Below are positions 3,675-55,441 of a DNA stretch of 64,000 nucleotides, piece by piece. Origin of the DNA: Candidatus Dormiibacterota bacterium. Its GTDB lineage: Bacteria > Chloroflexota > Dormibacteria > Dormibacterales > Dormibacteraceae. Position 1 is the first letter of the stretch. Every line of letters starts with the position of its first letter. A model generated the notes under the pieces. That model searched no databases. It had not been told where the DNA came from and worked only from the letters and a program-made list of their open reading frames with translations. The DNA lies in assembly GCA_036570165.1 (NCBI GenBank), contig DATCPI010000116.1:28107-92106 (forward strand), read 5' to 3'. The position numbers and the translations under genes are program-made.

Positions 3675-3855
3675 AGGCGCGGCCTGAAAGCCCTCGACGG
3701 ATCTTCGGCGCCCATGCGGCCCATCTCCGGGTTCAGCTCCTGCGCTGCTCGCTTACGAATACACGATGCGCTCGCTGCGCTGCTCGTCGCTTCACCCGGA
3801 TCTGAGCCACCTGGATCGCCGAATCTCTCGCCGAGGGTTTCGGCCGCGCCTCTAA
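3671..3855. repeat. Intergenic element with ~33-nt imperfect terminal inverted repeats between convergent genes
   Basis: The left arm is TTAGAGGCGCGGCCTGAAAGCCCTCGACGGATCTT (3671-3705). The reverse complement of the right arm (3822-3855) is TTAGAGGCGCGGCCGAAACCCTCGGCGAGAGATT. The outer 14 nt are perfect, and both arms include the stop codons of the flanking genes. Confidence 0.6.
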
Positions 3856-5741
3856 GCCTCCGTCACCTTCTTCCCAACAGATCCCTTCACGGCTTCGAAT
3901 ACCGACTTTGCGACGCCCGCCGCATCCAACCCATGCTCCTTGAGGATGTCCGAAGCTCTGCCCTGTGGCAGGAACTGATCGGGTAGCGCAAGAGTCCGCA
4001 CTCGCCCGGCCAGCCCGTGCGGAGCCAGCGCTTCGAGCACCGCGCCGCCAAAGCCTCCGGTGCCGACGTTGTCCTCGACCGTCATGACCACCCGATGCCT
4101 GCGCGCCCATTCGGTGATGCGAGGGTCGACTGGCTTAACCCATCGGGCATTGACGACGGCGCAGGAGACGCCTTGCATGTCCAGCCGCTCGGCCGCCTCC
4201 TTGGCGACCTCCACCATGCGGCCCACCGCGAAGATGACCGCGTCGTCACCCTTGCGCAGCTCCTCCCAACGGCCGACCGGTAGAGGCTCCACCGGCAAAT
4301 CCGGCGTCGCCGGCACCGGGCCCTTGGGGTAGCGGATCGCGACGGGGCCGTCAAGTGCGAGGGCAGTCTCCAGGAGTGCGCACAGCTCCGTCGCGTCAGC
4401 GGGCGCGGCGATCTTCAAGTTGGGGATGAGCCGCAGGAAGGACAGATCGAAGATTCCATGGTGTGAAGAGCCGTCCGGACCTGTCACGCCGGCGCGGTCG
4501 ATCACGAAAACCACCGGCAGCTTGTGCATCGCGACGTCCATCAGCGTCTGATCGAATGCGCGGGCGAGAAAAGTCGAGTAGATGCAGACCACCGGATGCA
4601 TGCCGGCCATCGCGAGCCCCGCTGCGAATGTGACCGCATGCTGCTCGCAGATGCCGACATCGAAGAACCGATCGGGGAATTCTTTCGCGAAGTTCAGAAG
4701 ACCGGTTGACGAAGCCATCGCCGCGGTGATCGCGCAAACCTCTGGACGTCTCGCCGCTGCAGTCATCAGAGCTTCACCGAAGACGTCCGTGTAGCTGACC
4801 TCGGTCGAGCGCGGACGGCCCGTCAACGGATCGAACGCCGACACGCCGTGCAGCTTGTCGACCTCATCCTCAACGGCAGGACCGTAGCCGTGGCCTTTCT
4901 CGGTGACCACGTGAACGACGACCGGCTCGCGAAGCTTCTTCGCGCGCGACAGCATCACCTCGAGTGCTGCCTCATCGTGGCCATCGACGAGTCCTGCGTA
5001 CTTGATGCCGAGGCTCTCGAAGATCGTCGACGGCTGAAGGAGCTGCTTCAAACCTTCCTTGACGCGATACGCGGCCTGGTCGGCGGTCGAGCCGACGAGC
5101 GGAAGGTCGCGGAGCAATCGCGAGATGTCGTCTTTGATCCGCTCGTAACGCGGGTCGACACGGAGCTGCGACAGGTGCCGCGCAAGGCCGCCGACGGTCG
5201 GCGCATACGAGCGGCCGTTGTCATTGATCACTATCACCAGGTTCGGCGGCTGAAGGTGGGCGATCTGGTTGAGTGCCTCATACGCCATGCCGCCGGTCAG
5301 CGCGCCGTCGCCGATGATCGCGACCACGTGGCCCCCGACGCGCTTGCGCAGCCGAGCCTCGGCGATGCCCAGCGCATAGCTGAGCGACGTCGACGCGTGG
5401 CTGTTCTCCACCAGGTCATGAGCGGACTCCTTGCGCGATGGATAGCCGGACAGGCCGCCGGCCTGCCGCAGCCGCGCAAAGTCCTTCGACCTACCCGTCA
5501 CGATCTTGTGGACATACGCCTGGTGACCGGTGTCCCAGACGATCGCGTCCTTCGGGCTGTCGAACACCCTGTGCAGGGCGAACGTGAGCTCAACCACACC
5601 GAGGTTCGGTGACAGGTGACCGCCGGTCTTCGAGGTCTGCTCGACGAGGAACTCACGAACTTCCTGGGCCAGCTCCGACAGATGCGTCTGGTCGAGCGCG
5701 CGAAGGTCGGCGGGCGAGTTGATGGTCTCGAGGATGCCCAT
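3852..5741 (-). CDS. dxs: 1-deoxy-D-xylulose-5-phosphate synthase
   Basis: Shows the typical Dxs N-terminus MGILETINSPADLRAL and the TPP motif GDGALTGGMAYEALN, with transketolase-like middle and C-terminal domains. I moved the start to ATG 5741 because the longer ORF (5792) would overlap the pepA stop at 5750. Confidence 0.95.
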   Translation of the reverse strand: MGILETINSPADLRALDQTHLSELAQEVREFLVEQTSKTGGHLSPNLGVVELTFALHRVFDSPKDAIVWDTGHQAYVHKIVTGRSKDFARLRQAGGLSGYPSRKESAHDLVENSHASTSLSYALGIAEARLRKRVGGHVVAIIGDGALTGGMAYEALNQIAHLQPPNLVIVINDNGRSYAPTVGGLARHLSQLRVDPRYERIKDDISRLLRDLPLVGSTADQAAYRVKEGLKQLLQPSTIFESLGIKYAGLVDGHDEAALEVMLSRAKKLREPVVVHVVTEKGHGYGPAVEDEVDKLHGVSAFDPLTGRPRSTEVSYTDVFGEALMTAAARRPEVCAITAAMASSTGLLNFAKEFPDRFFDVGICEQHAVTFAAGLAMAGMHPVVCIYSTFLARAFDQTLMDVAMHKLPVVFVIDRAGVTGPDGSSHHGIFDLSFLRLIPNLKIAAPADATELCALLETALALDGPVAIRYPKGPVPATPDLPVEPLPVGRWEELRKGDDAVIFAVGRMVEVAKEAAERLDMQGVSCAVVNARWVKPVDPRITEWARRHRVVMTVEDNVGTGGFGGAVLEALAPHGLAGRVRTLALPDQFLPQGRASDILKEHGLDAAGVAKSVFEAVKGSVGKKVTEA

Positions 5742-5749
5742 CGGGTGCT

Positions 5750-7258
5750 CTAACGCTCCGCGCCTGACATCAGTTCCGCGAGCGCGATGCACAGCCTGGT
5801 CCCGGCTCCACTCGGGCCGCGCAGCACCGTTGTCAGCTCAGTGTTCGTGTTCCAGCTTGACGAGGCGATGTCCAGGTGCGCCCAGGGTTTTCCTCCGGCG
5901 AACTCGCCGATGAACATGCCACCCAGGATGGTTCCGGCCTCGCCGTACTCGGCGTTGCGCAGATCCGCGATCTGGCTGCGAAGAAGGACCCGGTAATCGG
6001 CGTAGATCGGCAGCCGCCACACCCGGTCTCCGGCCTCCGCCGCGGCGCGTTCGACCAGGGCCCAGAAGGTGTCGTCGTTGCTGACCGCCGCCGTCGCGGC
6101 ATGCCCGATCGCGATCTTGGCCGCGCCGGTCAACGTCGCCAGGTCGAGGATGTGGGTCGCGCCGTTGCGCAGCGCGTGGGTCAGCGCGTCGGCGAGAACC
6201 AGCCGCCCTTCGGCATCGGTGTTGACGATCTCGACGGTCTTGCCGTCAGCGCTGACCTGCACGTCTCCGGGCCGCTGTGCCGACGGCCCAGGCATGTTCT
6301 CGGTCGCGGCGATGACCGCCATGACATCCAGCGGTACTTTGCGCGCGGCGATCACGTCGATGGCCGACAGCACCGCCGCGGCACCCGCCATGTCGGACTT
6401 CATCATGCTCATGCTTTCGGCCGGCTTGATCGAGATTCCGCCCGAATCGAACGTGACGCCCTTGCCCACAAGGGCCAGCGCAGGAGCTCCGCCGTCGGCA
6501 TGGCCGCCCGGACGCCCGCCGCGATGGCGCAGGCGGATCAGGCGCGGAGGCTTCGCCGAGCCTGACGCAACACCGAGTAACAGGTTGTAGCCTCCGGTTC
6601 GCAGCTCGGCCGGCCCCAGCACCTCGATCTCGAGCCCGTGCCTCTGCGCGATCCGAGTCGCCTCCTCGGCCAGCGCCTCCGGCGTCAGCTCATTCGGCGG
6701 TGCGTTCTGCCATTCACGCGCGCGGTTGGTGGCCTCGCCGTTCTCCTGCGCGGCGACAACCTCGTGCTCGCGACCGAGCCCGAAGCCGGTCAGGACGAGC
6801 TCCTCGATCTCGCGTCGTTCCGGCTGCGCACCCGTCTGCCGCGAGCGCCGCTCGAAGGTGCCCATGACGCAGCCCTCGACCACTGCTTTCAATGTGTGTA
6901 TGGCCAGCGGGGGGTCGGCGCGGACAAGACCGATGCGCTTGTAGCCGTAGGTGCGTGAAGCGCGAATCAGCTCGTGGTGGGCAGAGCGCAGCCGCTGGCC
7001 GTCGAGGTCGTTTATGGCTCCGACTCCATAGAGGATCACCCGTCGGGGTCCCGCCTTGCTGCCATGTACTGGCACAGGGAGGACCTCATGGATTCGGCCG
7101 CGGAACTCGGCGCTGGCGATCATCTCGGAAAGCACTCCACCGAGCGCCTTGTCCAGCTCGAGGCTGGCGCCCGACAGCCGCTGGCCGGTGGCGACCGCGA
7201 CCGCAAGGGCGTCGACCGGGAGCTCGGCAGGCGGTGTTGCGACGAGGCTGATCTTCAC
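5750..7258 (-). CDS. pepA: Leucyl aminopeptidase (M17 family)
   Basis: Carries VGKGVTFDSGGISIKP and the M17 signature NTDAEGRLVLADAL. Confidence 0.9.
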   Translation of the reverse strand: MKISLVATPPAELPVDALAVAVATGQRLSGASLELDKALGGVLSEMIASAEFRGRIHEVLPVPVHGSKAGPRRVILYGVGAINDLDGQRLRSAHHELIRASRTYGYKRIGLVRADPPLAIHTLKAVVEGCVMGTFERRSRQTGAQPERREIEELVLTGFGLGREHEVVAAQENGEATNRAREWQNAPPNELTPEALAEEATRIAQRHGLEIEVLGPAELRTGGYNLLLGVASGSAKPPRLIRLRHRGGRPGGHADGGAPALALVGKGVTFDSGGISIKPAESMSMMKSDMAGAAAVLSAIDVIAARKVPLDVMAVIAATENMPGPSAQRPGDVQVSADGKTVEIVNTDAEGRLVLADALTHALRNGATHILDLATLTGAAKIAIGHAATAAVSNDDTFWALVERAAAEAGDRVWRLPIYADYRVLLRSQIADLRNAEYGEAGTILGGMFIGEFAGGKPWAHLDIASSSWNTNTELTTVLRGPSGAGTRLCIALAELMSGAER

Positions 7259-32151: not shown

Positions 32152-35100
32152 GTGATCGAGTTGGCGAGCGATCAAGAGGCGTCCCTGCCTACGTCCACAA
32201 CCTCTTCCGCCCTGGACGCGGTAGCCGAATGGGCCAATGAGGGCCGGCGGCTGCATCGGTGGGCGCGACTCCTTCCCGTCATCACCGGGATCGCCGCCAC
32301 GCTCATCCTGGCTGCGGTCGGCTACCGGCTGTGGAGGGCGGACGTCGGCGCCGGTGAGCTGGTGGCCTGGGGTGGGGCTCTCTTCGTCCTGGCCGGCCTG
32401 GCTTACCTCAGCCAGCGCGTGCTCGACCGCAGCCTGGCGCGGCAGGCCCAACGACAGGCCTCGCTCCTCCAGGCGATCAGCGACATCGGCGAAGGGCTGG
32501 TGATCACGGAGAACGGCCGCTACATTGCCTCCAACGCCGCGTACCAAACCCTGACCGGGTACGACGCCGCCGAGCTCAGGGCCTTTGGATCTCTGATCGA
32601 GCTGGCCCCCGAAGAGGAGCGCCAGGGGCTGACCGACCAGCTTTCCAGCCGTTTGGTCGGCGGCGACGTGCCGCACCGCTACGAATCGGCGCTGATGACG
32701 AAGGATGGGCGCCACATCCAGGTCGAGACCGCCGTCCGCCGCCTGGCCGCCGAAGGCAAGCACCGGCTGCTCGCCCTCGTTCACGACATCAGCGAGCGGC
32801 ACCGCATGGAGGAGGCCGAGCGCGAGAGCGAGACGAGGTTCCGCACCCTGTTCGAGCAGGCTCAGGCGGGCATGGCCTTCGCGGCGCTGGACGGCCACAT
32901 CACCACCGTGAACCCCGCTTTTTGCCAGTTGGTGGGCTTCAGCCACGCCGAGCTTTCAAATCTGTCGCTGATCGACATCACCTACCCCGAAGAGGTCCCC
33001 GCCCTTCAGCAGGCGATGTCCCGCATGCTGGCGGGCCAGGAAGAGGGGACACGCATTGAGATGCGATACACCCGAAAGGACGGCGAGCCGGTTTGGGTAG
33101 ACGTCACGACCCGACTCGTGCGTGGCCCAGACAACAATCCGCTGTACCTCCAAACCGTCGCGGTCGACATTCGCGACCGCAAGCGAGCCGAGGTTCTGCA
33201 AGCGGCCCGTTTCGCGGTCACCCAGGCGCTGGTCACCTCGCCGGGCTGGGAAAAGGCGGCGCCGGGCGTCCTCGAAGGGCTGTGCATGACGCTCGATTGG
33301 GAGCTTGCCGAGTACTGGGAGGTCGATGCGGAACGCGAAGCGATGCACTTTGTGACCTCATGGAAAAGGCCGGGGCGGGACACTTCGAGCTACGAGGCCA
33401 CCGCGTCTCAGACGAGCTACAAGCGCGGCGAGGGATTGGCGGGGCGAGTATGGGAAACGGGTACTCCCGTTTCGATACAGGACGTCGCCTCCGACGATTC
33501 GCCACGCTCGGCCGCCGCCGTCGCCGCGGGCCTAAAGGGAATCGTGGGATTCCCGGTGCGGAGCGGGCGCCGGGTCGTTGGGATGATCGCGCTTCACACG
33601 TGGGCGCCGCGCGACCTCGACGAGGGCTTGCTAGCGGTCATGAACGACGTCGGTTCGCAGATCGGCGAGTTCGTCGAGCGCAAGCGCGCCGAGGTGGCGC
33701 TGCAGGAGAGCGAAAAGCGGATGCGCTCAGTCCTCGACAACGTCTCGGACGGGATCGCCACGATCGAGCAGACAGGCATCATCGAGTCCGCCAACCCGGC
33801 TGTCGTCAAGCTGTTCGGCTATTCAGAGCAGGACCTGGTCGGTCAGCAGGCGGACGTGCTGATCGCGACCACGCATCGCAGCGCGTTCATCAACTACCTG
33901 GAACGGCGGCTCAAGCTCGACATCCCGGTCAGCGGCGCGCACGAGACGATGGGCAAGCGCAAGAACGGAAGCCTTTTTCCTCTCGAGTTCGTCGTCAGCT
34001 CGATGCAGATCGGCTCGCGTCATGTGTTCATCGCCACGCTCCGCGACATCTCGGAGCGCAAGGCGCACACCGATGCGCTCGAGTACCAGGCTCTGCACGA
34101 CGCGCTGACCGGGCTGCCAAATCGCAGCCTTTTCGGCGACCGCCTCCGCCAGGCGCTGTTGGCGGCGCGCCGCAACCAGAAGATGTTCGGCGTTCTGCTG
34201 CTCGACCTCGATCGCTTCAAGGACATCAACGACGCGCTCGGTCACGACCGCGGTGACAGCCTGCTGCAAGAGGTGACCGCGCGCCTGCGCGGCGTCCTGC
34301 GTGCGACCGACACGATTGCCCGGCTCGGCGGTGACGAGTTCGCGGTGCTCACCACCGACGCCAAGCATCCCGATGACGTGGTGTCCACCGCACGCAAAAT
34401 CCTGGCCGCCCTCGAAGGGCCTTTCGCGATCGCCGACCAGATGGTCGAGACAGGCGCCTCGATCGGCATCGCGATGTACCCCGTCCACGGGGACGATCCG
34501 AGCACGCTGCTGCGCCGCGCGGACGTTGCGATGTACGTTGCCAAGCGCTCGGGCGGCGGGTTCGCCGTGTACGCGCCGGAGCAGGAGGCGCAGACGCTGC
34601 GCCGTTCCGGGCTGGCCGGCGAGCTGCGGCGGTCGATCCCCCAGGGTGAGCTCGTCCTGCATTACCAACCTCAGGTCACCCTCGCCACTGGCGCGATTCA
34701 TTCGGTCGAGGCGCTGGTGCGCTGGAACCATCCCCGAGAAGGGCTCATGCCGCCCGACCGCTTCATCCCCATGGCCGAGGAGACCGGCATCATCCATCCG
34801 CTCACCGCGTGGGTCCTGGATTCAGCGCTCGCGCAGCTGGTCAAGTGGCTCGAGGACGGGCTGGACGTTTCCGTATCGCTCAACGTGTCGCCTCGCAACA
34901 TCGAAGACCACTCGTTGGAGGAGATGGTCGCGAGGGCCCTCGGCACGTTCAAAGTCGAGCCGCAGCGGCTCACGCTCGAGATCACAGAGGGTGTGGCGAT
35001 GGCCGCGGCCGCGGCCAAGGCGCTGCACAGGTTGAACGAGATGGGTGTGCGGCTGGCCCTCGACGATTTCGGGACCGGCTACTCCTCGCTGCTGTACCTC

Positions 35101-35382
35101 ATGCGCCTACCGGTTAACGAGATCAAGATCGACCGCTCATTCGTGTCGGCACTCGCCTCCGACCCTGACTCGGGCGCGATAGTGCGCTCGGCCGTCGGGC
35201 TGGGTCATAACCTCGGCCTGCGAGTGGTCGCGGAAGGTCTGCAGGACCGCGCCGCGGAAGCCATCCTGATCGAAGCCGGCTGTGATGCGGCGCAGGGATT
35301 CCTGGTGGGGCGGCCGACCGCCGAGCGCGACATGACGGACCTCCTGCTTGCTCACTCAGGCCTCGCCAAACAGCTGGACTGA
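32152..35382 (+). CDS. Membrane-anchored PAS-PAS-GAF-PAS-GGDEF-EAL c-di-GMP signalling protein
   Basis: Two N-terminal TM segments and repeated PAS-like blocks (VITENGRY..., ...TVNPAFCQLVGFSHAEL, ...ESANPAVVKLFGYSEQDL). I-site RATD sits 5 aa before an intact RLGGDEFAV. Intact EAL (VEALVRW), DDFGTGYSSL and EIKIDRSF. Confidence 0.9.
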   Translation: MIELASDQEASLPTSTTSSALDAVAEWANEGRRLHRWARLLPVITGIAATLILAAVGYRLWRADVGAGELVAWGGALFVLAGLAYLSQRVLDRSLARQAQRQASLLQAISDIGEGLVITENGRYIASNAAYQTLTGYDAAELRAFGSLIELAPEEERQGLTDQLSSRLVGGDVPHRYESALMTKDGRHIQVETAVRRLAAEGKHRLLALVHDISERHRMEEAERESETRFRTLFEQAQAGMAFAALDGHITTVNPAFCQLVGFSHAELSNLSLIDITYPEEVPALQQAMSRMLAGQEEGTRIEMRYTRKDGEPVWVDVTTRLVRGPDNNPLYLQTVAVDIRDRKRAEVLQAARFAVTQALVTSPGWEKAAPGVLEGLCMTLDWELAEYWEVDAEREAMHFVTSWKRPGRDTSSYEATASQTSYKRGEGLAGRVWETGTPVSIQDVASDDSPRSAAAVAAGLKGIVGFPVRSGRRVVGMIALHTWAPRDLDEGLLAVMNDVGSQIGEFVERKRAEVALQESEKRMRSVLDNVSDGIATIEQTGIIESANPAVVKLFGYSEQDLVGQQADVLIATTHRSAFINYLERRLKLDIPVSGAHETMGKRKNGSLFPLEFVVSSMQIGSRHVFIATLRDISERKAHTDALEYQALHDALTGLPNRSLFGDRLRQALLAARRNQKMFGVLLLDLDRFKDINDALGHDRGDSLLQEVTARLRGVLRATDTIARLGGDEFAVLTTDAKHPDDVVSTARKILAALEGPFAIADQMVETGASIGIAMYPVHGDDPSTLLRRADVAMYVAKRSGGGFAVYAPEQEAQTLRRSGLAGELRRSIPQGELVLHYQPQVTLATGAIHSVEALVRWNHPREGLMPPDRFIPMAEETGIIHPLTAWVLDSALAQLVKWLEDGLDVSVSLNVSPRNIEDHSLEEMVARALGTFKVEPQRLTLEITEGVAMAAAAAKALHRLNEMGVRLALDDFGTGYSSLLYLMRLPVNEIKIDRSFVSALASDPDSGAIVRSAVGLGHNLGLRVVAEGLQDRAAEAILIEAGCDAAQGFLVGRPTAERDMTDLLLAHSGLAKQLD

Positions 35383-35556: not shown

Positions 35557-36393
35557 GTGAAAGCGATTGTGCTCGGGGCCGCAGGGCAGCTTGGGTCGGC
35601 GCTTGCACGGCTGATCGGCGAGGACTCCGGTGTGACGCATGCGGAGGTGTCTGTCACCGATCAGCATGCTCTTGATGCTCTCCTGAACAGCCGGAGTCCG
35701 GAGCTGGTGTTCAACTGCGCCGCATACAACGCGGTGGACCGGGCAGAGGCGGAGCGGGCCCTGGCCTATGCGGTCAACTCGGAAGGCCCGGCCAACGTCG
35801 CCATGTCGTGCGCGCGCCATGGGGTCCGGCTCGTCCATTTCTCGACCAACTTCGTGTTCGACGGTGCCCTCGAGCGCCCTTACGTCGAGACCGACATTCC
35901 GGCGCCGCTCAGCGTCTACGGATCATCCAAGCTCGAGGGGGAGCAGAGGGTGCTGGATCTTCTGCCGGAGGCGCTCGTGATCAGGACCTCCGCAGTCTTT
36001 GGTGACACGGGCTCGGCAGTCAAGGGCGGGAGCTTCCCCGAACGGATCGTGTCGCGTGCCCGGCTCGGTCTGCCGCTGCGAGTTGTGGCCGACCAGAGGG
36101 TCAACCCGACTTACGCGGGCGACCTGGCCCCGGCCGCGATCAAGCTCGCGGAAAGCCGCCTGGAAGGTGTCGTCCATGTCGTCGCCGCGGGTTGCGCGGG
36201 CTGGGACGAATTCGCCCGTGCGGCGCTGTCGGAGCTGGGCGTCACTGCGAAGGTGGAAGCCATTGTGTCCGCCGAGCTGGCCACGCCTGCGGCAAGACCG
36301 CTCAACGGATGCCTTGAGTCCAGTCGGGCGGCCCCGCTGAGGCCCTGGCGGGAGGGGCTCCACGAATGGGCCGTGAGGCGTCGTGGAGCATAA
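35557..36393 (+). CDS. rmlD: dTDP-4-dehydrorhamnose reductase
   Basis: MKAIVLGAAGQLGSAL, FNCAAYNAVDRAE and STNFVFDG...PLSVYGSSKLEGE (YxxxK). GTG start. Confidence 0.8.
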   Translation: MKAIVLGAAGQLGSALARLIGEDSGVTHAEVSVTDQHALDALLNSRSPELVFNCAAYNAVDRAEAERALAYAVNSEGPANVAMSCARHGVRLVHFSTNFVFDGALERPYVETDIPAPLSVYGSSKLEGEQRVLDLLPEALVIRTSAVFGDTGSAVKGGSFPERIVSRARLGLPLRVVADQRVNPTYAGDLAPAAIKLAESRLEGVVHVVAAGCAGWDEFARAALSELGVTAKVEAIVSAELATPAARPLNGCLESSRAAPLRPWREGLHEWAVRRRGA

Positions 36394-36887: not shown

Positions 36888-37268
36888 TTGGTTTCAGCAA
36901 ACGAATTGCACACTTTGATCACATCGAACGATTTAGCAACTCGCCTTGGCGTGAGCCGGGCCACCGTTCTTCGCGCCGTGGCGAGGGGGCTCCTCAAGCC
37001 CGCCTCTGTCACCCCGGGAGGCCACCGCCGATTCCTGCCTGAGGACATCGAGGACCTAGCCGGCCGGCTTGAGGCGCGGCCCGCGGAGCTGGTCAGCTCG
37101 AAAGAGGCGGCGCGGCTCCTCGGGGTCAGCCAGCAGACGGTGAACCGGGCCGCCCGGGAAGGGCGGCTGCATCCAGCCTCGGTCACGCCGGGCGGGCATC
37201 GACGCTTTTCCCGCTCGGCGATCTATGACTCGCTGCGCGAAGTCGATCACAACGGGACGAGAGCCTGA
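36888..37268 (+). CDS. Tandem-duplicated BldC/excisionase-type (MerR-like HTH_17) DNA-binding protein
   Basis: There are two homologous halves: LATRLGVSRATVLRAVARGLLKPASVTPGGHRRFLPEDIEDL and AARLLGVSQQTVNRAAREGRLHPASVTPGGHRRFSRSAIYDSL. Start is uncertain (in-frame TTG at 36888, 36906 and 36915). Confidence 0.7.
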   Translation: MVSANELHTLITSNDLATRLGVSRATVLRAVARGLLKPASVTPGGHRRFLPEDIEDLAGRLEARPAELVSSKEAARLLGVSQQTVNRAAREGRLHPASVTPGGHRRFSRSAIYDSLREVDHNGTRA

Positions 37269-39694
37269 TGGCGGGGGACGAATCGGGTTCGCATTCGGAG
37301 CCGCGGGCTGACCGCGGTCAGCTCGTCTGGAGCATCCTTCTGAACCTCATCCTGATCGCCGCGGTCGTCCTTGGGGTGATACCCATCGTCGCCATCGCTC
37401 GTGGCTTTGTCGAGCTGGTGACCGAGTCGAAGACTCGCAGCGGGGCGGACTGGGTCGGATACGGGTTCGCGTTCACCGGCCTGTTTCTCGGTGCGGTCTT
37501 CTTCGCATATGCGATCAAGTACTACCTCAGCACGGCCATCGTGCTGCTGACGACGCTGGCGTTCGGGGGTCCTCGCAACGGCAACGGCAACGGCAACGGT
37601 CACGGCTCGCCGAACCTCACCGGCCACAGCCGCATCAACGCCAATGGCAACGGCAACGGCTACCACATCGATCTCGGCTATCACCCGTTCGTCTCAATCC
37701 ACGTCGCCGCATACAACGAAAAGCGCGTCATCGAGCGCCTTCTCCAAGCACTCGACCAGCTCGAGTACCCCGAGTACGAGGTCGTCGTGGTCGATGACTC
37801 GAACGATGAGTCGGTGCAGATACTGCAGGCATGGCGGAACAGGCCACGCTTCAAGATCCTCCACCGCGCCACCCGCAAGGGGTACAAGGGGGGCGCGCTC
37901 CAGGAGGCGCTGAAGGTCACCGACCCCAGGGCCGAATACATCGTCGTCTTCGACGCCGACTCGGTCCCATTCCCGGACTCGATCGATCGTCTTCTGCCTC
38001 ATTTCTATCGAGTCAGCGAGGGCACGGCCAACCGGATGCTGGAGTCGAACTTCGGTCGCGCTGAGCCTCCGTCGGAACCTGGGCAGATCAAGCGCAGGAC
38101 AGAGGTCGCGGCCGTGCAGAGCTACCAGTGGCACGTCCTCAACAAGTCGGAGAGCTGGCTGACCGAAGCCGTGAGGGCCGAATACTCCGGCAGCTACATG
38201 GTCGAGCGCCCATTCCAGGACGCCGTCGGCGCTCTGAAGATGATCGCGGGCACCGCCTACATGATTCGCGCGGACGTCCTGCGCCAGGTCGGCTGGGGCA
38301 CGAGCATCACGGAGGACTGGGAGCTCACGCTCAAGCTCTACGCGCGCGGCTACAAGGTCGCCTACACGCCCTGGGCTGAGACGCCCGCCGAATGCGTCAG
38401 CACGTTCGCTCGGCTCGCCCGTCAGCGAATGCGGTGGGCCGAAGGCCACACCTACAACGTGCGCAAGTGGTTCCTGCCGATCATGCGGTCACCCTTTTTG
38501 ACCCCGCTGGAGAAGGGAGAGTTCCTCTTCGACTCCACCTATTACCTGCAGGCCGGGCTCTTCGTGGTCGGGACAGTGAGCTGGCTCATGTCGGAGACCG
38601 TGTTTCACACCCACGTGCCCGGCTGGACAGCGGTGCTCGGATGGTCGCTGCTCTTCTCCAACATCTTCGCGCTGCCGCTGATGAACCTGGGAGGGCTGAT
38701 CCTGGAAGAAGCCCCGAGGCGCGACATGCAGGGAGTATTTGGCGCGTTGGTGCTGTCCTTTGCGCTGGTTCCATTTCAGGGCTGGGCGGCTTTCAAGGGC
38801 CTCGTCAGCAAGGACGAAGGGCCGTGGTTCCGAACCCCAAAGACGGGTCGCGTCACAGACGAGGTCCACCACCTTCGCCGGCTCCAGCTCTTGCGGCGGT
38901 GGCTGTTGGGCCGGCGGGCTCGGCGACTGGAACTGACACCGATTGCCCGCACGGCGACGCCGGCGGTGGCACGCACCGTAATTCGGTCGCGGAATCGGTG
39001 GATCGGCTGGGGAGTCGCCCTCGCCATGCTCGCGTCCTTCGGCGGTTTGGCCTGGCTGGCTTCGCGTGCCCCTGTCGTCAGCGCCGCAGGCAACCCCCTG
39101 TACCTGCACGGCGGCGGCGTGGCGCCATGCACCGCCAGCACGCTCGACCAGGCGATCGGGATCCGGCCATTGGCGTCTGCGTGCTCGATCGGTGTGGGGA
39201 TCACGACGACCTGGGGATTCACGAACCTGCCTGCGCAGACCGTGGCCGCGGGGATCTGGAGCTTCACCATGTACTGGAGCGGGGGAACCGGGAACGCCAG
39301 CAACACGGTGGCGGTCAGCGCCGGCGTGTCCCTGACCGCCAGCTGCGCGACGTTCGTCGCGACGATCCCGAATCCGGGCACCACGTGGACGACGGACTTT
39401 GGATCTCTAGCCACGAACACCTCGAGCCCGTTCACCGTGAGCACAAGCGCGAGCCAGCTGCCGCTGGTGATTCCGCCAGGTGGGTCCCTTTGTCTGTCCG
39501 TCACTCTGACGCACAACACCGGCGGACCCGTGTTGATGCTCTATGACGGGGCGGCCGGCGTCGCGGACACGCGGGCGGTCCCGCCGAGCATCATCGTGCC
39601 CGAGTCAGTCCTGGGCCTGGTGGGGTTTGCCCTCCTGATACCTCTATTCACACGCCGCAAGCGCGTCCTCGAGCTCTTTAGGTTTCGGACATGA
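37268..39694 (+). CDS. Processive-type family 2 glycosyltransferase (synthase) with an extra C-terminal TM anchor, a ~190-aa extracytoplasmic domain and a PEP-CTERM-like tail
   Basis: The GT2 core has VSIHVAAYNE, VVVVDDSNDES, VVFDADSVP, ITEDWELT and the QxxRW motif RQRMRWAEG, plus multiple TM segments. The module at 38999-39694 is described in the findings. The ATG overlaps the upstream TGA (TGATG). Confidence 0.85.
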   Translation: MAGDESGSHSEPRADRGQLVWSILLNLILIAAVVLGVIPIVAIARGFVELVTESKTRSGADWVGYGFAFTGLFLGAVFFAYAIKYYLSTAIVLLTTLAFGGPRNGNGNGNGHGSPNLTGHSRINANGNGNGYHIDLGYHPFVSIHVAAYNEKRVIERLLQALDQLEYPEYEVVVVDDSNDESVQILQAWRNRPRFKILHRATRKGYKGGALQEALKVTDPRAEYIVVFDADSVPFPDSIDRLLPHFYRVSEGTANRMLESNFGRAEPPSEPGQIKRRTEVAAVQSYQWHVLNKSESWLTEAVRAEYSGSYMVERPFQDAVGALKMIAGTAYMIRADVLRQVGWGTSITEDWELTLKLYARGYKVAYTPWAETPAECVSTFARLARQRMRWAEGHTYNVRKWFLPIMRSPFLTPLEKGEFLFDSTYYLQAGLFVVGTVSWLMSETVFHTHVPGWTAVLGWSLLFSNIFALPLMNLGGLILEEAPRRDMQGVFGALVLSFALVPFQGWAAFKGLVSKDEGPWFRTPKTGRVTDEVHHLRRLQLLRRWLLGRRARRLELTPIARTATPAVARTVIRSRNRWIGWGVALAMLASFGGLAWLASRAPVVSAAGNPLYLHGGGVAPCTASTLDQAIGIRPLASACSIGVGITTTWGFTNLPAQTVAAGIWSFTMYWSGGTGNASNTVAVSAGVSLTASCATFVATIPNPGTTWTTDFGSLATNTSSPFTVSTSASQLPLVIPPGGSLCLSVTLTHNTGGPVLMLYDGAAGVADTRAVPPSIIVPESVLGLVGFALLIPLFTRRKRVLELFRFRT

Positions 39695-40275
39695 GAACTC
39701 GAGACCGCGACAACCTCAACCTGACGCTGCTTGCGCTGCTGTGTGCGCTGCTCATGCTGCTGCCGTTGGTGACGACTTTCGACGACCTCCTCACTGCGTG
39801 GGCGATGGGGCTCGGTGCGAACAACCCATTGCAAACGATCGTCCCGGTCGAGGCGCGGATGGTGGTGGGTCTCCTCGGCCTGGCGGGAATACATGCGGCG
39901 GCGTCCGGAAGTCACCTCGTGGTCTGGGATGGGAGCGGCGCGATGCACACTCTGTACATCTCGTGGAACTGCATCGGTTGGCAGAGCCTGATCCTGCTTG
40001 GTGTAAGTTTGCTGTCCGGCCTGCGCGGGCGACATCCACTCGAAGCTCGCGTCCAGGTCATCGTCATCGGCGTTGCCGGCACGATGCTGCTCAACCTCTT
40101 GCGCGTCGCTGCGGTCGCGGGCATCGCCGCTACGGTCGGCGTCACGCCCGCCGTCCTCTTTCACGATTACGGAGGCACGATCCTTCTCATCTCATTCCTC
40201 TTTGTGTTCTGGATGTTCGTTCAACGGTGGATTCTCGGTTCGGTGCCGTCAGACGAGCTTGAGGTGGCCGCGTGA
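39691..40275 (+). CDS. Minimal exosortase/archaeosortase-family protein (194 aa)
   Basis: Polytopic protein with ordered motifs: ISWNCIGWQSL (Cys94), LLNLLRVAAV (Arg138) and VLFHDYGGTIL (His158). The spacing resembles the Cys/Arg/His core of exosortases. ATGA overlap with the GT2 gene. Confidence 0.7.
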   Translation: MRTRDRDNLNLTLLALLCALLMLLPLVTTFDDLLTAWAMGLGANNPLQTIVPVEARMVVGLLGLAGIHAAASGSHLVVWDGSGAMHTLYISWNCIGWQSLILLGVSLLSGLRGRHPLEARVQVIVIGVAGTMLLNLLRVAAVAGIAATVGVTPAVLFHDYGGTILLISFLFVFWMFVQRWILGSVPSDELEVAA

Positions 40276-42500
40276 ACCGATGGCTTCGACTCGTCCTTCA
40301 GACAGCCCTTGGCCTGGTGCTGCTGTGGTTGTGGCTGCGCACCGTTTCGCTCACCGAGGTGATGAGCCATGCGCGAGTCCACAGCTGGGCCCCGGTGCTC
40401 CTGATGATCGCCCTCTTCCTACTGACGAGCCTCATCAGGGCCCGCCGCTGGCTGATTCTGCTGCGCCCGCTCGCCCCGGTCGGGATGGTCAGGGCGTTTG
40501 CCATGAACGCGGCCGGCGGACTCCTCAACTACGTGCTGCCGATTCGCTCGGGAGACGCCGCGCGCGCGTGGTGGCTGTGGCGGCGCCATCGCGTGCCGGC
40601 GGGATCGGCCCTGGCCACCATCGTGGTCGACAAGGCCTGCGACCTCGCCGCGGTGGCATTCGTCCTGGCGCTGCTCGAGGTGATCGCCTTGACCGGGATC
40701 GTGAGCGCTCCGCGCGGGCTCCTGGGCGCTGCCGCCCTGGCGGTCGCGCTGCTTGTCGCCGTGCTGGGAACGGCGCTGCTCGGCCCGCGGCTGGCGCGGT
40801 CATGGCTGGCCAAAAGGTTGCTGCCATCACGATTTGCGACGGCGATCGCGGGTCAAGCCTTTGCGTTCCGGGCCGGGGCTCGAGGTTTGTGGACTCCGGC
40901 GCTGGCAAGCCGGCTTGCCCTCCTGACGGTGCTGGCGTTGGTGATCGACGCCTTCAACTTCACGCTGCTGTTCGCCGCGGTGGGGATCTCGGTTCCGCCG
41001 CTGAAGGCGATGGCCGCGTATCCAGCGCTGCTGCTGAGCTTCGCCGTTCCGGCCGGGCCTGGATACGTCGGCAACCTGGAGGTGGCGGGGTCGCTGGTCC
41101 TGGGTGGCGGCCTGGGGTTGGCCCCGGCGGTTGCCGCCGGCGCCATCGTCCTGTACCACGCGCTCACAGCGGGATACGCCCTCGTCCTTGGACTCCTGGG
41201 CTTCCTTCTCGTCGGGGGCCGGCGCGCTGTTCGCGCCGGGGGGCCGCGCCGCGTAGCGGTCTTCCATTGCGGATTCACGTATTCGGGCGGCGGCGAGCGG
41301 ATCGTCATCGAAGAGGTGTTGGGACTACGAAGACGTGGTTACGACGTGGAGTGCTACGCGCCGACCGTCGATGAGTCGCGGTGCTACCCGGATTTGATTG
41401 GCGAGGCGCGCGTCCGAACTTTTCTGCCGCAGCTGCCGCGCTGGTTCCCGTTGCGGGAGGCAGTTCAGATGGCGGCTACTTCTTTGCTGATGCCTCTTTA
41501 TGCGTGGCGCTTTCGCGGAGTCGACGCCATCGTCGGGTGCAACCAGCCGAGCGCATGGATCGCCTGGTGGGCGGCGAGGTTGATGGACGTGCCCTACGTG
41601 GTCTATCTGAACCAGCCGAATCGCCTGGTGTATCCGCGCAACATCGACCGCGAGACGGGATGGGTGGCCAACGCCGACTACAGGCTGCTGGCGGCGATCG
41701 TGCTGCGCGCGACGCGATTCGTTGCGTGGGCCGACCGGCGCTCCGTGCAGGAGGCGGACCAGCTGCTCGTCAACGGCGATTACATCGGCGACATCATCCG
41801 GCGCACTTATCGTCGCGAAGCGGCTGATTGCCCGGCGGGTTGCCATGTTGCCGCGTCGGGCTTTCCGCTGCCCGTCGATGCGCGCTTTGCAGGTGGTTTG
41901 ACCATCAACGGTTATCCGATCCGGCGGCCGTACGTGCTGCTGACCAATCGTCACTACCCGCAGAAGCGATTCGACCTCGCGATCAGGGCGATCGCCGAGG
42001 TGCGCAAGCTCCACCCGCGAGTACAGCTCGTGATACCGGGTCCCTTCACTACACACACGGAGTCGCTCCAGGCACTGGTCGCGGAGCTGGGGCTGGCGGA
42101 GGCAGTGCTCTTCCTCGGCCCGATTGCAGAAGACGAGCTGCAGAAGCTGTACGAGGGAGCCGCCGTCTACGTATATCCGGCACCTGAGGAAGATTTCGGC
42201 ATGGGGGTCATCGAGTCGATGGCCAAGGGCGTGCCGGTGGTGGCGTGGAACCAGGCGGGGCCGACGGTCACTGTCGGGCCTGGCACGGGGCACCTTGCGG
42301 AGCCGCTCGTGGTGAGCGATTACGCGGCGGGCATCTCGCGGCTGCTTGACGATCCGTCGGAGAACCAGGCGACGGGAACACGTGCGTTCGAATGGGCGCG
42401 GCGGTTTGACTGGGAACGACACATCGACACGATGGAAAAGGTCGTCCTCGAGGTGGCACGCTCCCACGAACGATTCGCGGCGGAGGCTGCCACCGCTTGA
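40272..42500 (+). CDS. Flippase-like (LPG-synthase-TM / UPF0104) membrane domain fused to a GT4 (GT-B) glycosyltransferase
   Basis: The N-terminal ~320 aa are polytopic and carry LIRARRWLILLRPL...AGGLLNYVLPIRSGDAARAWWL. The C-terminus has a GT4 E-x7-E region (EEDFGMGVIESMAKGVPVVA). GTGA overlap. Confidence 0.8.
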   Translation: MNRWLRLVLQTALGLVLLWLWLRTVSLTEVMSHARVHSWAPVLLMIALFLLTSLIRARRWLILLRPLAPVGMVRAFAMNAAGGLLNYVLPIRSGDAARAWWLWRRHRVPAGSALATIVVDKACDLAAVAFVLALLEVIALTGIVSAPRGLLGAAALAVALLVAVLGTALLGPRLARSWLAKRLLPSRFATAIAGQAFAFRAGARGLWTPALASRLALLTVLALVIDAFNFTLLFAAVGISVPPLKAMAAYPALLLSFAVPAGPGYVGNLEVAGSLVLGGGLGLAPAVAAGAIVLYHALTAGYALVLGLLGFLLVGGRRAVRAGGPRRVAVFHCGFTYSGGGERIVIEEVLGLRRRGYDVECYAPTVDESRCYPDLIGEARVRTFLPQLPRWFPLREAVQMAATSLLMPLYAWRFRGVDAIVGCNQPSAWIAWWAARLMDVPYVVYLNQPNRLVYPRNIDRETGWVANADYRLLAAIVLRATRFVAWADRRSVQEADQLLVNGDYIGDIIRRTYRREAADCPAGCHVAASGFPLPVDARFAGGLTINGYPIRRPYVLLTNRHYPQKRFDLAIRAIAEVRKLHPRVQLVIPGPFTTHTESLQALVAELGLAEAVLFLGPIAEDELQKLYEGAAVYVYPAPEEDFGMGVIESMAKGVPVVAWNQAGPTVTVGPGTGHLAEPLVVSDYAAGISRLLDDPSENQATGTRAFEWARRFDWERHIDTMEKVVLEVARSHERFAAEAATA

Positions 42501-44125
42501 GGCTGCTGCCCAGGATCCTTCCCACCGAAGAGGAAGAGGAGCAGCGACTCGAGCAGCCAGATCCCGAGCCCCTGGGAGACACGAACGGTCCGTCGCTTCA
42601 TTGGGGCGGGCCGGCAATCGTGGCGGCGGGCGCCGCGATCCCGCGTCTCATTTATCTGTTCGCGTTCACGGATCCACAGAACGCAGGCCACGGGTTCACG
42701 GATGCCTATCACCACTGGCAAATTGCCTACTTGACCAAAGAGATCGGGCTCACCCACGGGCTACGCCTTTGGGACTTGCGGGGATGGGAGTACTACTGGG
42801 GGCTGCTGCACCCGGCTCTCACGGACCTTCTCTTTTTCGCCACCGGGTCACCGGACATCGTGCTGGCCCGGCTCCTGAGTCTTGTCTTCGGCTCCCTCAC
42901 CGTGGTGCTGATTTTTCTTCTCTGCCATCGCTACTGGGGCACAACCGTTGCGGTGGCCGCCAGCGCGTTTGCCGCGCTGGCACCGGCGAGCGTCTTCAAC
43001 GATGTCGCCGGCATGGCCGAACCGATTGGAGTCGCCCTGGTTCTCTTTGGAATCTGGTTGACGCCGAGGCATGGTTTCTGGGCAGGCGTGTCCTGGGCGT
43101 GCGCGGCGATGGCGAGGGTAGAGGCGTGGCTCTTCGGAGCGGGTCTGATCGTTGCCTGGCTGTTGGGAAGACGTCGGGGTCAGCCGCGGTGGTCGTTGGC
43201 GGCCGGCTGGGTGCTTGTGCTGGCTCTCTATGCGAAGTTTCTTTACGACCGGACCGGAAATCCCATCTATCCCGTCTACTGGAGCTTCCAGTTCGTCGCA
43301 TTTGGAGGGTTCGACTCGGGAGCGGTGGTTCCATCGGGCCAGGAGATGCTGGGGTTGCCGCTGGCTGGAGCCGTTGCGGTCTCGGCTGCCGGACTCGCTT
43401 GGTCCTTGTGGAAGCGACCACCTTCGTATTTGCTTCTCGTCTACGGATTCGGTTATTCGGCGTACAGCTTCGCCACGTTCCTGAAGGTCGATGACTGGAA
43501 AGAACGCCGCTTTGAGTTTCCAATGGACTTTGCCGCCATCCTCGTCGCAGTTCTGCTGTTCAAAGTCCTTCCGGAGCGGCGTCGGGGACTCGAGCCTCTA
43601 GGGTGGGCGATCGCGATTGCGGGTCTCCTGGTCGTCCAGATCTTTTGGATCCCGATCCAGAGTGCGTATTCCGCCACCGAACCTGGGTTCCGGGATCAGG
43701 TGCGCCTGGGACGTGCGATCGGGGTGGTCTACAACCGTCCGGAGTACAAGGGCGGGGGACTGACCGTGCCGGGCGACGATCCAACTCTGGTCTACGTATT
43801 GGTGCGTAACGAAAAGGTTCCGGGCGCTCGAATCTCGAGTGAGTTCTACGATCCTTTCTATTACCTGCCAGCCGGCTACCGGTATGCCGACCATAAGGAG
43901 AGCGTCGGAGCGTTGCTGAAATGCTGGCTGGCAAGCACGCAAACCCGGCTGCTCTTGGTGACGCCGCCCAGCGCGTTCAATCACTCGGTGGCGGATTACA
44001 ACGCCTTCATCGCCGACCATTCCCAGTGGTTTGTAGATACCGGGGCTCAATTGGACCCAGGGTGGTCACTCGTGGCTGTTCAGGTGCCAGCCCCTGGCCC
44101 GCACGAGTGCCCAGGGTCAGGGTAG
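42497..44125 (+). CDS. Polytopic membrane protein, GT-C (ArnT/PMT-like) putative glycosyltransferase
   Basis: About 11 hydrophobic segments, an acidic/aromatic first loop (FTDAYHHWQIAY) and a soluble C-terminal domain. Family assignment is by architecture only. TTGA overlap. Confidence 0.5.
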   Translation: MRLLPRILPTEEEEEQRLEQPDPEPLGDTNGPSLHWGGPAIVAAGAAIPRLIYLFAFTDPQNAGHGFTDAYHHWQIAYLTKEIGLTHGLRLWDLRGWEYYWGLLHPALTDLLFFATGSPDIVLARLLSLVFGSLTVVLIFLLCHRYWGTTVAVAASAFAALAPASVFNDVAGMAEPIGVALVLFGIWLTPRHGFWAGVSWACAAMARVEAWLFGAGLIVAWLLGRRRGQPRWSLAAGWVLVLALYAKFLYDRTGNPIYPVYWSFQFVAFGGFDSGAVVPSGQEMLGLPLAGAVAVSAAGLAWSLWKRPPSYLLLVYGFGYSAYSFATFLKVDDWKERRFEFPMDFAAILVAVLLFKVLPERRRGLEPLGWAIAIAGLLVVQIFWIPIQSAYSATEPGFRDQVRLGRAIGVVYNRPEYKGGGLTVPGDDPTLVYVLVRNEKVPGARISSEFYDPFYYLPAGYRYADHKESVGALLKCWLASTQTRLLLVTPPSAFNHSVADYNAFIADHSQWFVDTGAQLDPGWSLVAVQVPAPGPHECPGSG

Positions 44126-53754: not shown

Positions 53755-53829
53755 AGCGGAGTGGAGCAGCGGCAGCTCGTCGGGCTCATAACCCGAAGGT
53801 CGTTGGTTCGAATCCAACCTCCGCAACCA
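53755..53829 (+). tRNA. tRNA-Met(CAT), initiator type
   Basis: Hand-folded cloverleaf: acceptor AGCGGAG/CTCCGCA with a 1:72 A.A mismatch, D arm GAGC/GCTC, and anticodon arm TCGGG-CTCATAA-CCCGA (three G:C pairs next to the loop). T arm GTTGG-TTCGAAT-CCAAC. CCA is encoded. Confidence 0.85.
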
Positions 53830-53973: not shown

Positions 53974-54028
53974 GATCTTCTCTTCTATCTTCTCCTTTTG
54001 GGGCGCCCGGCTTGCGCCCGGCTTGCGA

Positions 54029-54104
54029 GGTGCCGTAGCTCAGGTGGTAGAGCGCGCGACTCATAATCGCGTTGTCGCTGGTTCGAGTCCAGCCGGCACC
54101 ACCA
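54029..54104 (+). tRNA. tRNA with CAT anticodon, probably tRNA-Ile2 (lysidine-modified) rather than elongator tRNA-Met
   Basis: Acceptor GGTGCCG/CGGCACC, D arm GCTC-AGGTGGTA-GAGC, anticodon arm CGCGA-CTCATAA-TCGCG, T arm GCTGG-TTCGAGT-CCAGC, ACCA end. The anticodon and T arms resemble E. coli ileX as I remember it. It is directly fused to tilS. Confidence 0.8.
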
Positions 54105-55441
54105 TGCTTCGAACAGATTCCTCATTACCAGTGCCGGAAGGCATCCGCCAGTCCGGTCTCATCAAACCAGGGGAGCGCGTGCTGGTGGCCGTGTCCGGAG
54201 GCCCGGATTCCACCGCCCTGGTTGTCGCCCTCAACGAGCTTGGGTGCAACGTGACGGCAGCGCATTTCGACCATGCGCTCCGCGACGGTTCGGAGCAAGT
54301 CGCGGAGCTGGTCGGCGCCATGTGCGTGAGGCTTGGCGTGGGACTGCTGAGCGAGCGTCGCCAGTCACCCATGCCGCGTGGCTCAGTACAGGCAGGCGCG
54401 CGCGTCCTTCGCTACGAGTTCCTGGAGCGTGCCCGCGTGGAGGCAGGCGCGGATGTCGTTGCGCTGGCTCACACCGCGGACGACCTGGTGGAGGGCGCCG
54501 TGCTGCACCTCATGCGTGGATGTGGATTCGCGGGCCTGCGTGGCATGCCGGCGAGCCGCGGCGCGTACGTACGGCCGATGCTGGCGGTCTGGAGAAAAGC
54601 GGTCATCGAATTCCTCGGCCAGCGTGGAGTCAGCGCCTACGAGGATCCGGCGAACGCGGACCTGAAGTACGCGCGCGCGCGCGTGCGACACCAGATCCTC
54701 CCCGCCCTCGAGCGAGACAGGCCCGGCATCGGCAGGCGGTTCTACGCGGCAGCGCGGCAGGCTTCCGCCATGCAGGAGGCGATCGAGAGCGCGGCCCGGC
54801 TTGTGCTCGGCGCCGGCATGCCCACGCCAGCCGAGGTGGCCGACCTGCCGGAACCAGTTGCTATTGAGCTGATGCGTTTTCTGTACTCGAACTCAGGCGG
54901 ATCGCAGCCGGGCCTGTCGCGATCACACCTGAGCTCGATGCTGCGTCTGGTCCGGGGCGGACCGGGTGGGCGAGGCGTCGACCTTCCTGACGGCCGGCGT
55001 TTTCGTATCGTGGGTCACCACATGGAAGTCGTCGCGCCGCCAAGCTCTCGTGCGCGAGGCAGCTCTGAGCCTCAGCTTGTGGTCAGACGCTGCAATGGCT
55101 GCGCCGATCCAAACGCGGCGCACCTGCGATCGGACCTTTCGCTGCATTTGGGATTCCGGCGGCCGGGATTGCGGATGCGGCCGGCCGGCGGCCGAGGTTC
55201 GCGCAAGCTGCAGGACATCCTGGTCGACGCCCGTGTTCCGCGTGAGGATCGCGACTCGTGGCCGCTGGTTTTCGCCGGAGAGAGACTTGCGTGGGTGCCC
55301 GGGATCGCAGTGGACGCCGACCTCGTCAGCGTTTCAGGCGTGGCATCCCAGCACGTCGCGATCTCGCCAATGCCGGACCGCTGGCAGCCAAAAATTGCTA
55401 GGCTAGGAACGCCCATCAGCCCTCGAGGAGAGTCGAGTTGA
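54104..55441 (+). CDS. tilS: tRNA(Ile)-lysidine synthase
   Basis: PP-loop [14 protein letters not shown], with ...[17 protein letters not shown] and a C-terminal substrate-binding region. The ATG at 54104 shares its A with the tRNA CCA end. The track ORF start (54023) runs through the tRNA. Confidence 0.85.

Follow-up and report, generated by a model that had tools for sequence, protein, structure and literature searches.

A stretch of 64,000 nucleotides from contig DATCPI010000116.1 of Candidatus Dormiibacterota bacterium (assembly GCA_036570165.1; the whole stretch is hereafter called the window) encodes a small membrane protein of the exosortase/archaeosortase type, 194 amino acids (aa) in length (positions 39691-40275, forward strand, ATG start), directly downstream of a GT2 synthase-like glycosyltransferase of 808 aa, to which a C-terminal extracytoplasmic domain and a sorting-type tail are fused (37268-39694, forward strand). 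Dormibacterota are an abundant uncultured phylum of soils. From sequence comparisons, we consider it fairly probable (roughly 0.7) that the small protein acts as a minimal-core cysteine protease or transpeptidase dedicated to a single substrate, the tail of the translationally coupled GT2 synthase upstream. The locus would be a polysaccharide synthase operon that probably contains a dedicated, one-to-one sortase-like processing step, whose cleavage reaction and acceptor, if any, we infer from other systems.

Superfamily membership and catalytic motifs of the small sortase

Judged by profile matches, the 194-aa protein belongs to the exosortase/archaeosortase superfamily, as had been proposed in a first-pass annotation of this DNA. 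The superfamily signature TIGR04178 of NCBIfam matches it with 33 bits (curated cutoff 23; E 5.4e-8), over residues 89-178 of the protein and positions 2-93 of the 97 in the model, and it also matches all 55 diverse relatives (55/55). At E<=1e-3, 1452 homologues were found, of which the top 120 are 193-200 aa long and 80-91% identical. The closest come from metagenome-assembled genomes (MAGs) of Candidatus Dormibacterota, where close homologues carry the database label 'exosortase/archaeosortase family protein'; as the annotation of one gene the assignment is ordinary, for pipelines already label such homologues generically.

The open reading frame (ORF) and the positions of the presumed active-site residues are exactly as first claimed. 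The stretches ISWNCIGWQSL, LLNLLRVAAV and VLFHDYGGTIL start at residues 90, 133 and 155, and contain Cys94 (TGC, 39970-39972), Arg138 (40102-40104) and His158 (40162-40164), respectively, all on the forward strand. The distance of 44 residues between Cys and Arg is borne out by these positions, and the value of about 41 that had been given for archaeosortase A (ArtA) is also correct (Cys173 to Arg214, PMC9263693). The motifs of the family, Cys-Xaa-Gly, Asn-Xaa-Xaa-Arg as well as His-Xaa-Xaa-Xaa-Gly, are located close to the outer termini of three successive helices (Haft 2006, PMC1569441), and all of them are present in the window protein as C94-I95-G96, N135-L-L-R138 (Asn135 codon, 40093-40095) and H158-D-Y-G-G162.

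These residues were followed through an alignment of 55 full-length or domain-trimmed relatives, 22-49% identical to the query, which were drawn from the 266 found at E<=1e-3 when 1.84 billion cluster representatives were searched exhaustively. Gly96, Arg138 and His158 are invariant (each 55/55), Cys94 is kept in 54/55 relatives, the sole exception being an alignment gap, and Asn135 in 52/55. Gly162 occurs in just 21/55, with Ala or Ser in most others, so the H-x-x-x-G motif is intact in the window protein and relaxed in the subfamily. In a 361-aa relative of the thaumarchaeosortase type (P0265), C243, R288 and H308 occupy the columns of C94, R138 and H158, and fall on the same TIGR04178 model positions as the window residues, within one residue. 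The three residues singled out in the first-pass annotation are thus placed by the alignment in the motifs that define the family, and this part of the proposed Cys/Arg/His catalytic core stands. The catalytic part assigned to His158 is less firm: it is suggested by conservation only, the triad itself being a conservation-based proposal (Haft 2023 preprint), and the residues critical in ArtA by mutagenesis are Cys173, Arg214 and Arg253 (reported in PMC9263693).

Hydropathy and an AlphaFold2 model built on the alignment of relatives (predicted local distance difference test, pLDDT, 92.8; predicted template modelling score, pTM, 0.84) depict a compact helical membrane protein, in which a small three-stranded sheet (residues 69-89) runs into Cys94 and is followed by helices 97-110, 117-148 and 151-182. 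The loop 111-116 (RGRHP) is basic and was therefore assigned to the cytoplasm; in the model, Cys94, Arg138 and His158 are placed towards the same ends, presumably the outer ones, of three successive helices. Searches of the PDB by sequence and by fold returned no related solved structure, and there is consequently no structural template for the catalytic geometry.

Size and subfamily

The sortase had initially been described as unusually small, which does not hold. The NCBIfam models of named subfamilies are of equal or smaller length (150-187), namely XrtM with 150 positions, XrtH with 158, XrtR with 160, pacearchaeosortase with 167, XrtX and XrtY with 168 each and XrtG with 187, and a minimal size beyond that of known members was rejected.

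Membership in XrtG, XrtX, XrtR or ArtC was rejected as well, every score being far under its cutoff. The sortase scored 30.4 bits with archaeosortase C (ArtC, TIGR03762; cutoff 100), 27.3 bits with the thaumarchaeosortase model (cutoff 250), 25.6 bits with XrtX (NF046081; cutoff 170; best E among the 55 relatives 2.4e-8), 17 bits with XrtG (TIGR03110; E 0.0043, cutoff 102.75) and 13.6 bits with XrtR (cutoff 150). For most named models the best E-values among the 55 relatives are around 1e-7 to 1e-8, equal to scores far under the cutoffs; the one strong named-model match among them is that of P0265 to thaumarchaeosortase (E 2.5e-29, 102.7 bits, cutoff 250). Because of these low subfamily scores, we place the sortase and its relatives in a separate clade that has no name in NCBIfam release 20.0. 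By sequence, this not yet named subfamily occurs in Dormibacterota, other uncultured bacteria and Bathyarchaeota. No match to the sortase was found by tblastn among the plasmids of PLSDB.

A sorting-type tail on the GT2 synthase

The ATG of the sortase gene overlaps the stop codon of the 808-aa gene (ACATGA), as noted at first pass, and the candidature of the upstream product as substrate, proposed at the same time, is strongly supported by the comparative evidence from adjacency and tail conservation given below. The 808-aa protein matches the Pfam families Glyco_tranf_2_3 (3.3e-23) and Glycos_transf_2 (1.4e-20); its nearest NCBIfam models are PgaC/IcaA and CelA, neither of which reaches its cutoff. 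Hydropathy indicates transmembrane (TM) segments at residues 16-52, 62-94, 461-479, 490-509, 579-597 and 778-795. The cytoplasmic GT2 catalytic domain (residues ~135-440, 37670-38587, forward strand) was delimited from the coordinates of the Pfam and NCBIfam matches.

The C-terminal part of the protein deserves particular attention. An internal TM anchor (residues 579-597, 39002-39058, forward strand), assigned by hydropathy and the positive-inside rule and present as a helix at residues 2-26 of the modelled fragment, is preceded by a cytoplasmic stretch that is strongly basic, and takes the next domain outside. This domain of about 180 residues (598-776; 39059-39595, forward strand), which we refer to as cargo, is predicted from AlphaFold2 and hydropathy to be an extracytoplasmic, Ser/Thr-rich beta jelly-roll. 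In the AlphaFold2 model of residues 574-808 (pLDDT 88.5), an all-beta domain sits between two TM helices. The top Foldseek hits of this model in the PDB are CocE/NonD-family hydrolase chains (E 5e-6, TMq 0.53), the matched part of which we take to be their C-terminal jelly-roll domain; weaker matches are to CBM16 and CBM61. The fold class of the modelled domain makes a carbohydrate-binding role plausible.

Downstream of the cargo domain lies a tripartite tail of the sorting type (39596-39664, forward strand), composed of V777-P778-E779 (39596-39604), a TM helix (residues 780-795, 39605-39652) and a basic cluster RRKR (796-799, 39653-39664). It reads ...PPSIIVPE-SVLGLVGFALLIPLFT-RRKR..., with the consensus (I/V)VPE, a TM helix with a Pro and RRKR. 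The motif adjoins the helix directly, as it does in signals on which membrane-embedded sorting enzymes act. Among the ORFs of the window, the GT2 gene is the only one whose product ends in a hydrophobic helix and, after it, a basic cluster. Two alignments of cargo and tail were inspected (A2 and A3), one of which spans the paralogous tail classes and archaeal proteins; in the latter comparison the Glu of VPE is the sole invariant residue, in a background of cargo domains that are otherwise just 15-33% identical. The Val does not vary in A3 and reaches at least 90% conservation in A2. For the Pro of VPE the level is likewise at least 90% in A3, with S, D or R as replacements in the more diverse set, and the Pro within the TM helix is conserved at 90% or more in both. 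A 'YD' pair near the end of the cargo domain, about 19 residues upstream of VPE, is likewise conserved in at least 90% of sequences, archaeal fusions included. The nearly invariant positions of the diverse cargo alignment are the Pro-x-x-x-Val ahead of the Glu, the YD pair and the TM Pro. The residue that follows V-P-E is S, G, H, L, Y, N, A, K, R, T or E, and never Pro, in the sequences seen. Neither the 45-aa tail of the window protein nor six related tails gave any NCBIfam or Pfam match with the limit set to E<=10.

A separate feature of the synthase is an Asn-Gly repeat linker, GGPRNGNGNGNGHG...NANGNGNGYH (37565-37672, residues 100-135), between the N-terminal TM helices and the GT2 domain. 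In distant homologues (P0167, P0191, the GT2 of locus L086, and L067/L073), similar NG-rich stretches are found at the equivalent point.

Linkage of sortase and cargo across genomes

One genome per GTDB species was scanned, which yielded 300 stretches with a relative of the sortase; the counts given here cover the best 80 loci. A homologue of the GT2-cargo protein adjoins the small sortase in 78/80 loci (tblastn), and the ORF that ends at the sortase start bears the same kind of tail in nearly all 80. In 0.8 Mb of flanking sequence 72 such tails were detected, all of them on the sortase-adjacent GT2 gene.

Some Dormibacterota MAGs (CF_78, CF_93 and SMAG_U11587, within L066-L082) contain two or more paralogous GT2-cargo/sortase modules, for example at 3632-5995 and 6001-6543 of L067 and at 548-2890 and 2923-3432 of L066. 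The sortases of these modules are 54-63% identical to the query, and each is paired with a GT2 and a tail variant of its own (...IVVPEHGSPL... or ...IFIPELVLPF..., in others VVPES/G), which suggests that each sortase co-diverged with its own signal. The partnership with the cargo is retained by distant sortase relatives (29-41% identity). Even the cargo-on-GT2 arrangement recurs with sortases that are 35-41% identical, on contigs of 49% and 65% GC, where the tails of the fused cargos read ...VSVPEY... and ...VTVPEY....

Altogether, sortase, cargo with signal, and GT2 were found in four arrangements, the window representing the one in which the cargo is fused to the C-terminus of the GT2. A separate cargo is encoded in L090, where the order is sortase, a 245-aa protein ending in ...VLPE-RLLPLLLVAPSIPLIA-KK..RRGRR, GT2 and GT2. 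A single chain of GT2, cargo, signal and sortase is seen in P0167 (946 aa) and P0191 (1227 aa; JGI and ENA assemblies). Finally, sortase, cargo and signal form a single chain of 428-474 aa in P0163, P0198, P0203, P0215, P0219 and P0251, the genes of which are solitary and have no glycosyltransferase genes beside them; MCD6479982.1, a protein from Bathyarchaeota, is a member of the P0203 cluster. The sortase and its candidate substrate are thus one polypeptide in certain archaea and bacteria. The Cys, Arg and His motifs are kept in all fusion proteins, and the fusions, as Rosetta-stone evidence, argue that the sortase and the cargo-plus-signal unit act together, usually with a GT2.

Several loci whose sortases are 58-91% identical to that of the window come from MAGs of the SMAG series labelled Nitrosotalea, Micrarchaeaceae, Nitrosopolaris and Eisenbacteria (L006, L036, L042, L044, L068 and L069). 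They are probably mis-binned Dormibacterota contigs and not true archaeal occurrences.

Proposed function and alternative explanations

In the mechanism that we propose, the jelly-roll domain would be positioned outside the membrane, held between the internal TM anchor and the C-terminal (I/V)VPE-TM-RRKR signal. The signal helix would dock beside the helices of the sortase, and Cys94, together with Arg138 and His158 at the outer membrane face, would attack the chain at the invariant Glu or beside it. As a result the C-terminal helix of the GT2 would be removed and the new C-terminus probably passed, by analogy with sortase and ArtA, to an acceptor, which could be a lipid, a component of the envelope or the growing polymer. 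The comparisons establish family membership, conserved motifs, a conserved tail, and the adjacency and fusion of the genes; cleavage as such, its exact site, the choice between transfer and hydrolysis, and the acceptor are inferred. Whatever the arrangement, an N-terminal helix keeps the cargo tethered, be it to the GT2, to the sortase or alone; release from the cell is therefore an unlikely purpose, and maturation or covalent coupling a more likely one.

A number of observations weigh against this interpretation. At E<=1 the sortase matches no Pfam family, PF09721 (Exosortase_EpsH) included, for which the distant relatives P0288 and P0136 have precomputed matches; no named Xrt/Art model of NCBIfam release 20.0 approaches its cutoff; and the GT2 tail is without the second Pro of PEP-CTERM and unmatched by any sorting-signal model. 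The third residue reported as critical in ArtA is an Arg, not a His. The tether would persist after cleavage, so that there would be no 'sorting' in the usual sense. An exceptional sub-clade is also to be considered, in which the sortase forms one chain with a class I methyltransferase (L088, 4079-5233) or is encoded beside one (L089, 6001-6612), and in which it also adjoins a YfhO-family membrane protein; no recognisable cargo of the VPE type was found beside these sortases, and their substrate may be different. Furthermore, the tail search was confined to the 64-kb window and the 0.8 Mb flanks of the loci.

The last two points would suit an active exosortase with its real substrates elsewhere in the genome, for which the GT2 helix is a mere membrane anchor and the adjacency reflects a shared role in envelope polysaccharide. 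Classical exosortases provide a precedent, as they occupy exopolysaccharide loci yet act on many dispersed PEP-CTERM proteins (PMC1569441). We nevertheless regard this as unlikely: the helix-adjacent motif is kept down to an invariant Glu across cargo domains of 15-33% identity, every paralogous sortase has its own adjacent tail variant, sortases are fused to cargo-plus-signal in two different orders, and no other such tail was found in the window or the 0.8 Mb flanks. Hardly a stronger candidate is a small protein that in this context lost, or never had, protease function and is instead a subunit of the synthase complex, with a structural or gating role and the GT2 tail helix as its permanent docking partner. 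The fusions imply a one-to-one stoichiometry, which is uncommon for an enzyme with turnover; this, and a cargo domain that is membrane-tethered even after the tail is cut, would agree with such a subunit. But Cys, Arg, His and the residues that complete their motifs vary little or not at all in 55 sequences of 22-49% identity, in all the fusions as well, and this conservation is hard to explain without catalysis. A chance open frame in GC-rich DNA, or a coincidental resemblance to the motifs, deserves virtually no weight. Many spurious long ORFs do exist in other frames of this 65% GC window, but the explanation is already refuted by a TIGR04178 score above the curated cutoff, the 1452 homologues (193-200 aa in the 120 listed), a conserved operon position, a GC content at third codon positions (GC3) like that of the adjoining genes and the pLDDT of 92.8.

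For the dedicated protease or transpeptidase that we favour, a wider proposal can be made tentatively, at somewhat short of even odds. The GT2 synthase, jelly-roll, VPE-type signal and small sortase may constitute a previously undescribed exosortase system. In it the synthase itself would contain the substrate, each substrate would be acted on once, and cleavage, instead of releasing the protein, would covalently couple the outer domain of the synthase to an envelope component or the nascent polymer. If so, a glycosyltransferase would for the first time be known as a sortase-type substrate, and the module would be a natural, single-substrate and self-contained model for exosortase chemistry. 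Exosortases are widespread, yet were without experimental analysis at the time of a 2018 review (PMC6098224). The papers we found add only indirect evidence, and the cleavage site, acceptor and even transpeptidase activity of exosortases are extrapolated from ArtA and sortase. With one enzyme and one substrate, adjacent or fused, the system would be open to reconstitution, and self-processing of the natural fusions would show directly on a gel. Sortase chemistry physically tied to a polysaccharide synthase would also bear on the question of why exosortases occupy exopolysaccharide loci, and the unmodelled type of signal and the unnamed sortase clade could become annotation models for Dormibacterota and Bathyarchaeota.

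Relation to known systems

The XrtG system is the closest known layout, and ArtA the closest experimentally studied enzyme. In the former, a system of Firmicutes, the gene order is a Firmicu-CTERM target, the small XrtG and then two glycosyltransferases (PMC12854382). Both sortases are small (model of 187 aa for XrtG, 194 aa here), their hosts are not expected to use classical outer-membrane PEP-CTERM sorting, and in both cases the operon joins one target, a sortase and glycosyltransferases; the layout of L090 is very similar. In contrast, the window tail is not matched at E<=10 by the NCBIfam sorting-signal models, which should include Firmicu-CTERM, and the model of the XrtG-associated GT2 (TIGR03111), which has a cutoff of 363.95, gives 31.2 bits on the window GT2. 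Here it is the C-terminus of the GT2 synthase itself that carries the target module, and downstream follow genes for a flippase-like/GT4 fusion and a GT-C-like protein. The layouts are analogous only.

ArtA of Haloferax volcanii, which processes PGF-CTERM proteins, shares with the window protein the superfamily signature, a similar Cys-Arg spacing (41 as against 44 residues) and a tripartite substrate signal with a motif abutting the TM helix. It differs in having several PGF-CTERM substrates, among them the S-layer glycoprotein, with cleavage linked to lipid attachment, whereas the substrate here is apparently single and part of a glycosyltransferase, with (I/V)VPE in place of PGF; no ArtA model was among the NCBIfam matches. 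ArtA has been found by experiment to cleave tripartite signals, of which one is not C-terminal (PMC6098224), which sets a precedent for the fusions in which the sortase follows the signal in a chain that begins with GT2 and cargo. Archaeosortase C goes with PEF-CTERM targets, and no sorting-signal model matches the window tail.

EpsH and exosortase A (TIGR02602, TIGR03109, PF09721) have in common with the window protein the three motifs (C-x-G, N-x-x-R and H-x-x-x-G) and presumably their place, where three consecutive helices end on the outer side, and their systems share the association with exopolysaccharide loci and a signal made of a Pro-Glu core, a TM helix and a basic cluster (PMC1569441). 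Enzymes of the EpsH type comprise at least eight TM helices, whereas the window protein is the catalytic core only, and they serve many dispersed substrates with N-terminal signal peptides. The window tail differs from PEP-CTERM signals in lacking a Pro-Glu-Pro core and in being unmatched by the PEP-CTERM models. XrtX, XrtY, XrtR, XrtH, XrtM and pacearchaeosortase resemble the window protein in containing little beyond a catalytic core (models of 150-168 residues), and XrtX, XrtG and XrtR (in the relatives also XrtH, XrtM and XrtY) give partial matches to the same region of the sortase.

Compared to these systems, the elements that appear to be new are a distinct sortase clade, a VPE-type signal not yet modelled, a cargo within the synthase, and enzyme-substrate fusions in bacteria and archaea. 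The pairing of sortase and GT2 tail is absent from the family libraries searched. No description of the arrangement was found in the literature searched on exosortases with fused glycosyltransferases, Firmicu-CTERM and Dormibacter; an earlier description is possible, the 2012 survey of archaeosortases and exosortases having been outside this coverage.

Operon and genomic surroundings

The sortase gene is the third in a string of five overlapping genes (36888-44125), all on the forward strand. The string begins with a regulator of 126 aa (36888-37268) that has two HTH_17 repeats of the BldC/excisionase-like type (Pfam HTH_17, 1.6e-23, two stretches); its best NCBIfam match is BldC, with 67.6 bits just short of the cutoff of 77. 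The regulator is found upstream of the GT2 in 50/80 loci and is missing from most paralogous modules, although L081 has a weak match of 44%. Downstream of the sortase are genes for a flippase-like LPG_synthase_TM/GT4 glycosyltransferase fusion of 742 aa (40272-42500; PF03706 5.9e-31, Glycos_transf_1 6.3e-26), a homologue of which is located at most 6 kb from the sortase in 65/80 loci, and for a polytopic membrane protein of 542 aa (42497-44125) that is weakly GT-C-like. Its Pfam matches (STT3 0.0033, PMT_2 0.004) are under cutoff, as is, by far, its single NCBIfam match, TIGR04154 (archaeosortase A system-associated oligosaccharyltransferase, E 0.0061). This gene was found in 50/80 loci and stands immediately 3' of the sortase in several paralogous modules (L067, L073, L077 and L081).

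All four successive junctions overlap: the regulator stop and the GT2 ATG share one base (TGATG), the GT2 stop and the sortase start meet in ATGA, the sortase stop overlaps the GTG start of the flippase-like/GT4 gene (GTGA), and the last junction, to the 542-aa gene, is a TTGA overlap. It is very likely from these start/stop overlaps that the five genes form one translationally coupled operon. The GC3 of the sortase gene, 0.77, matches that of the adjoining genes. By their sequence families, the flippase-like/GT4 and GT-C-like genes would fit a glycan-building context; more speculatively, they hint at glycosylation of the Ser/Thr-rich cargo.

Upstream of the operon, the window contains a gene for a 1076-aa protein (32152-35382), the counterpart of which in L001/L002 is a multi-PAS/GAF sensor, and a gene for an RmlD-like sugar-nucleotide reductase (35557-36393). 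The positions of both are kept in L001/L002. Two tRNA-Met (CAT) genes, spaced 200 bp, are located at 53755-53829 and 54029-54104; since the second overlaps the listed start of the ORF at 54023-55441, the real start of this ORF is probably further downstream.

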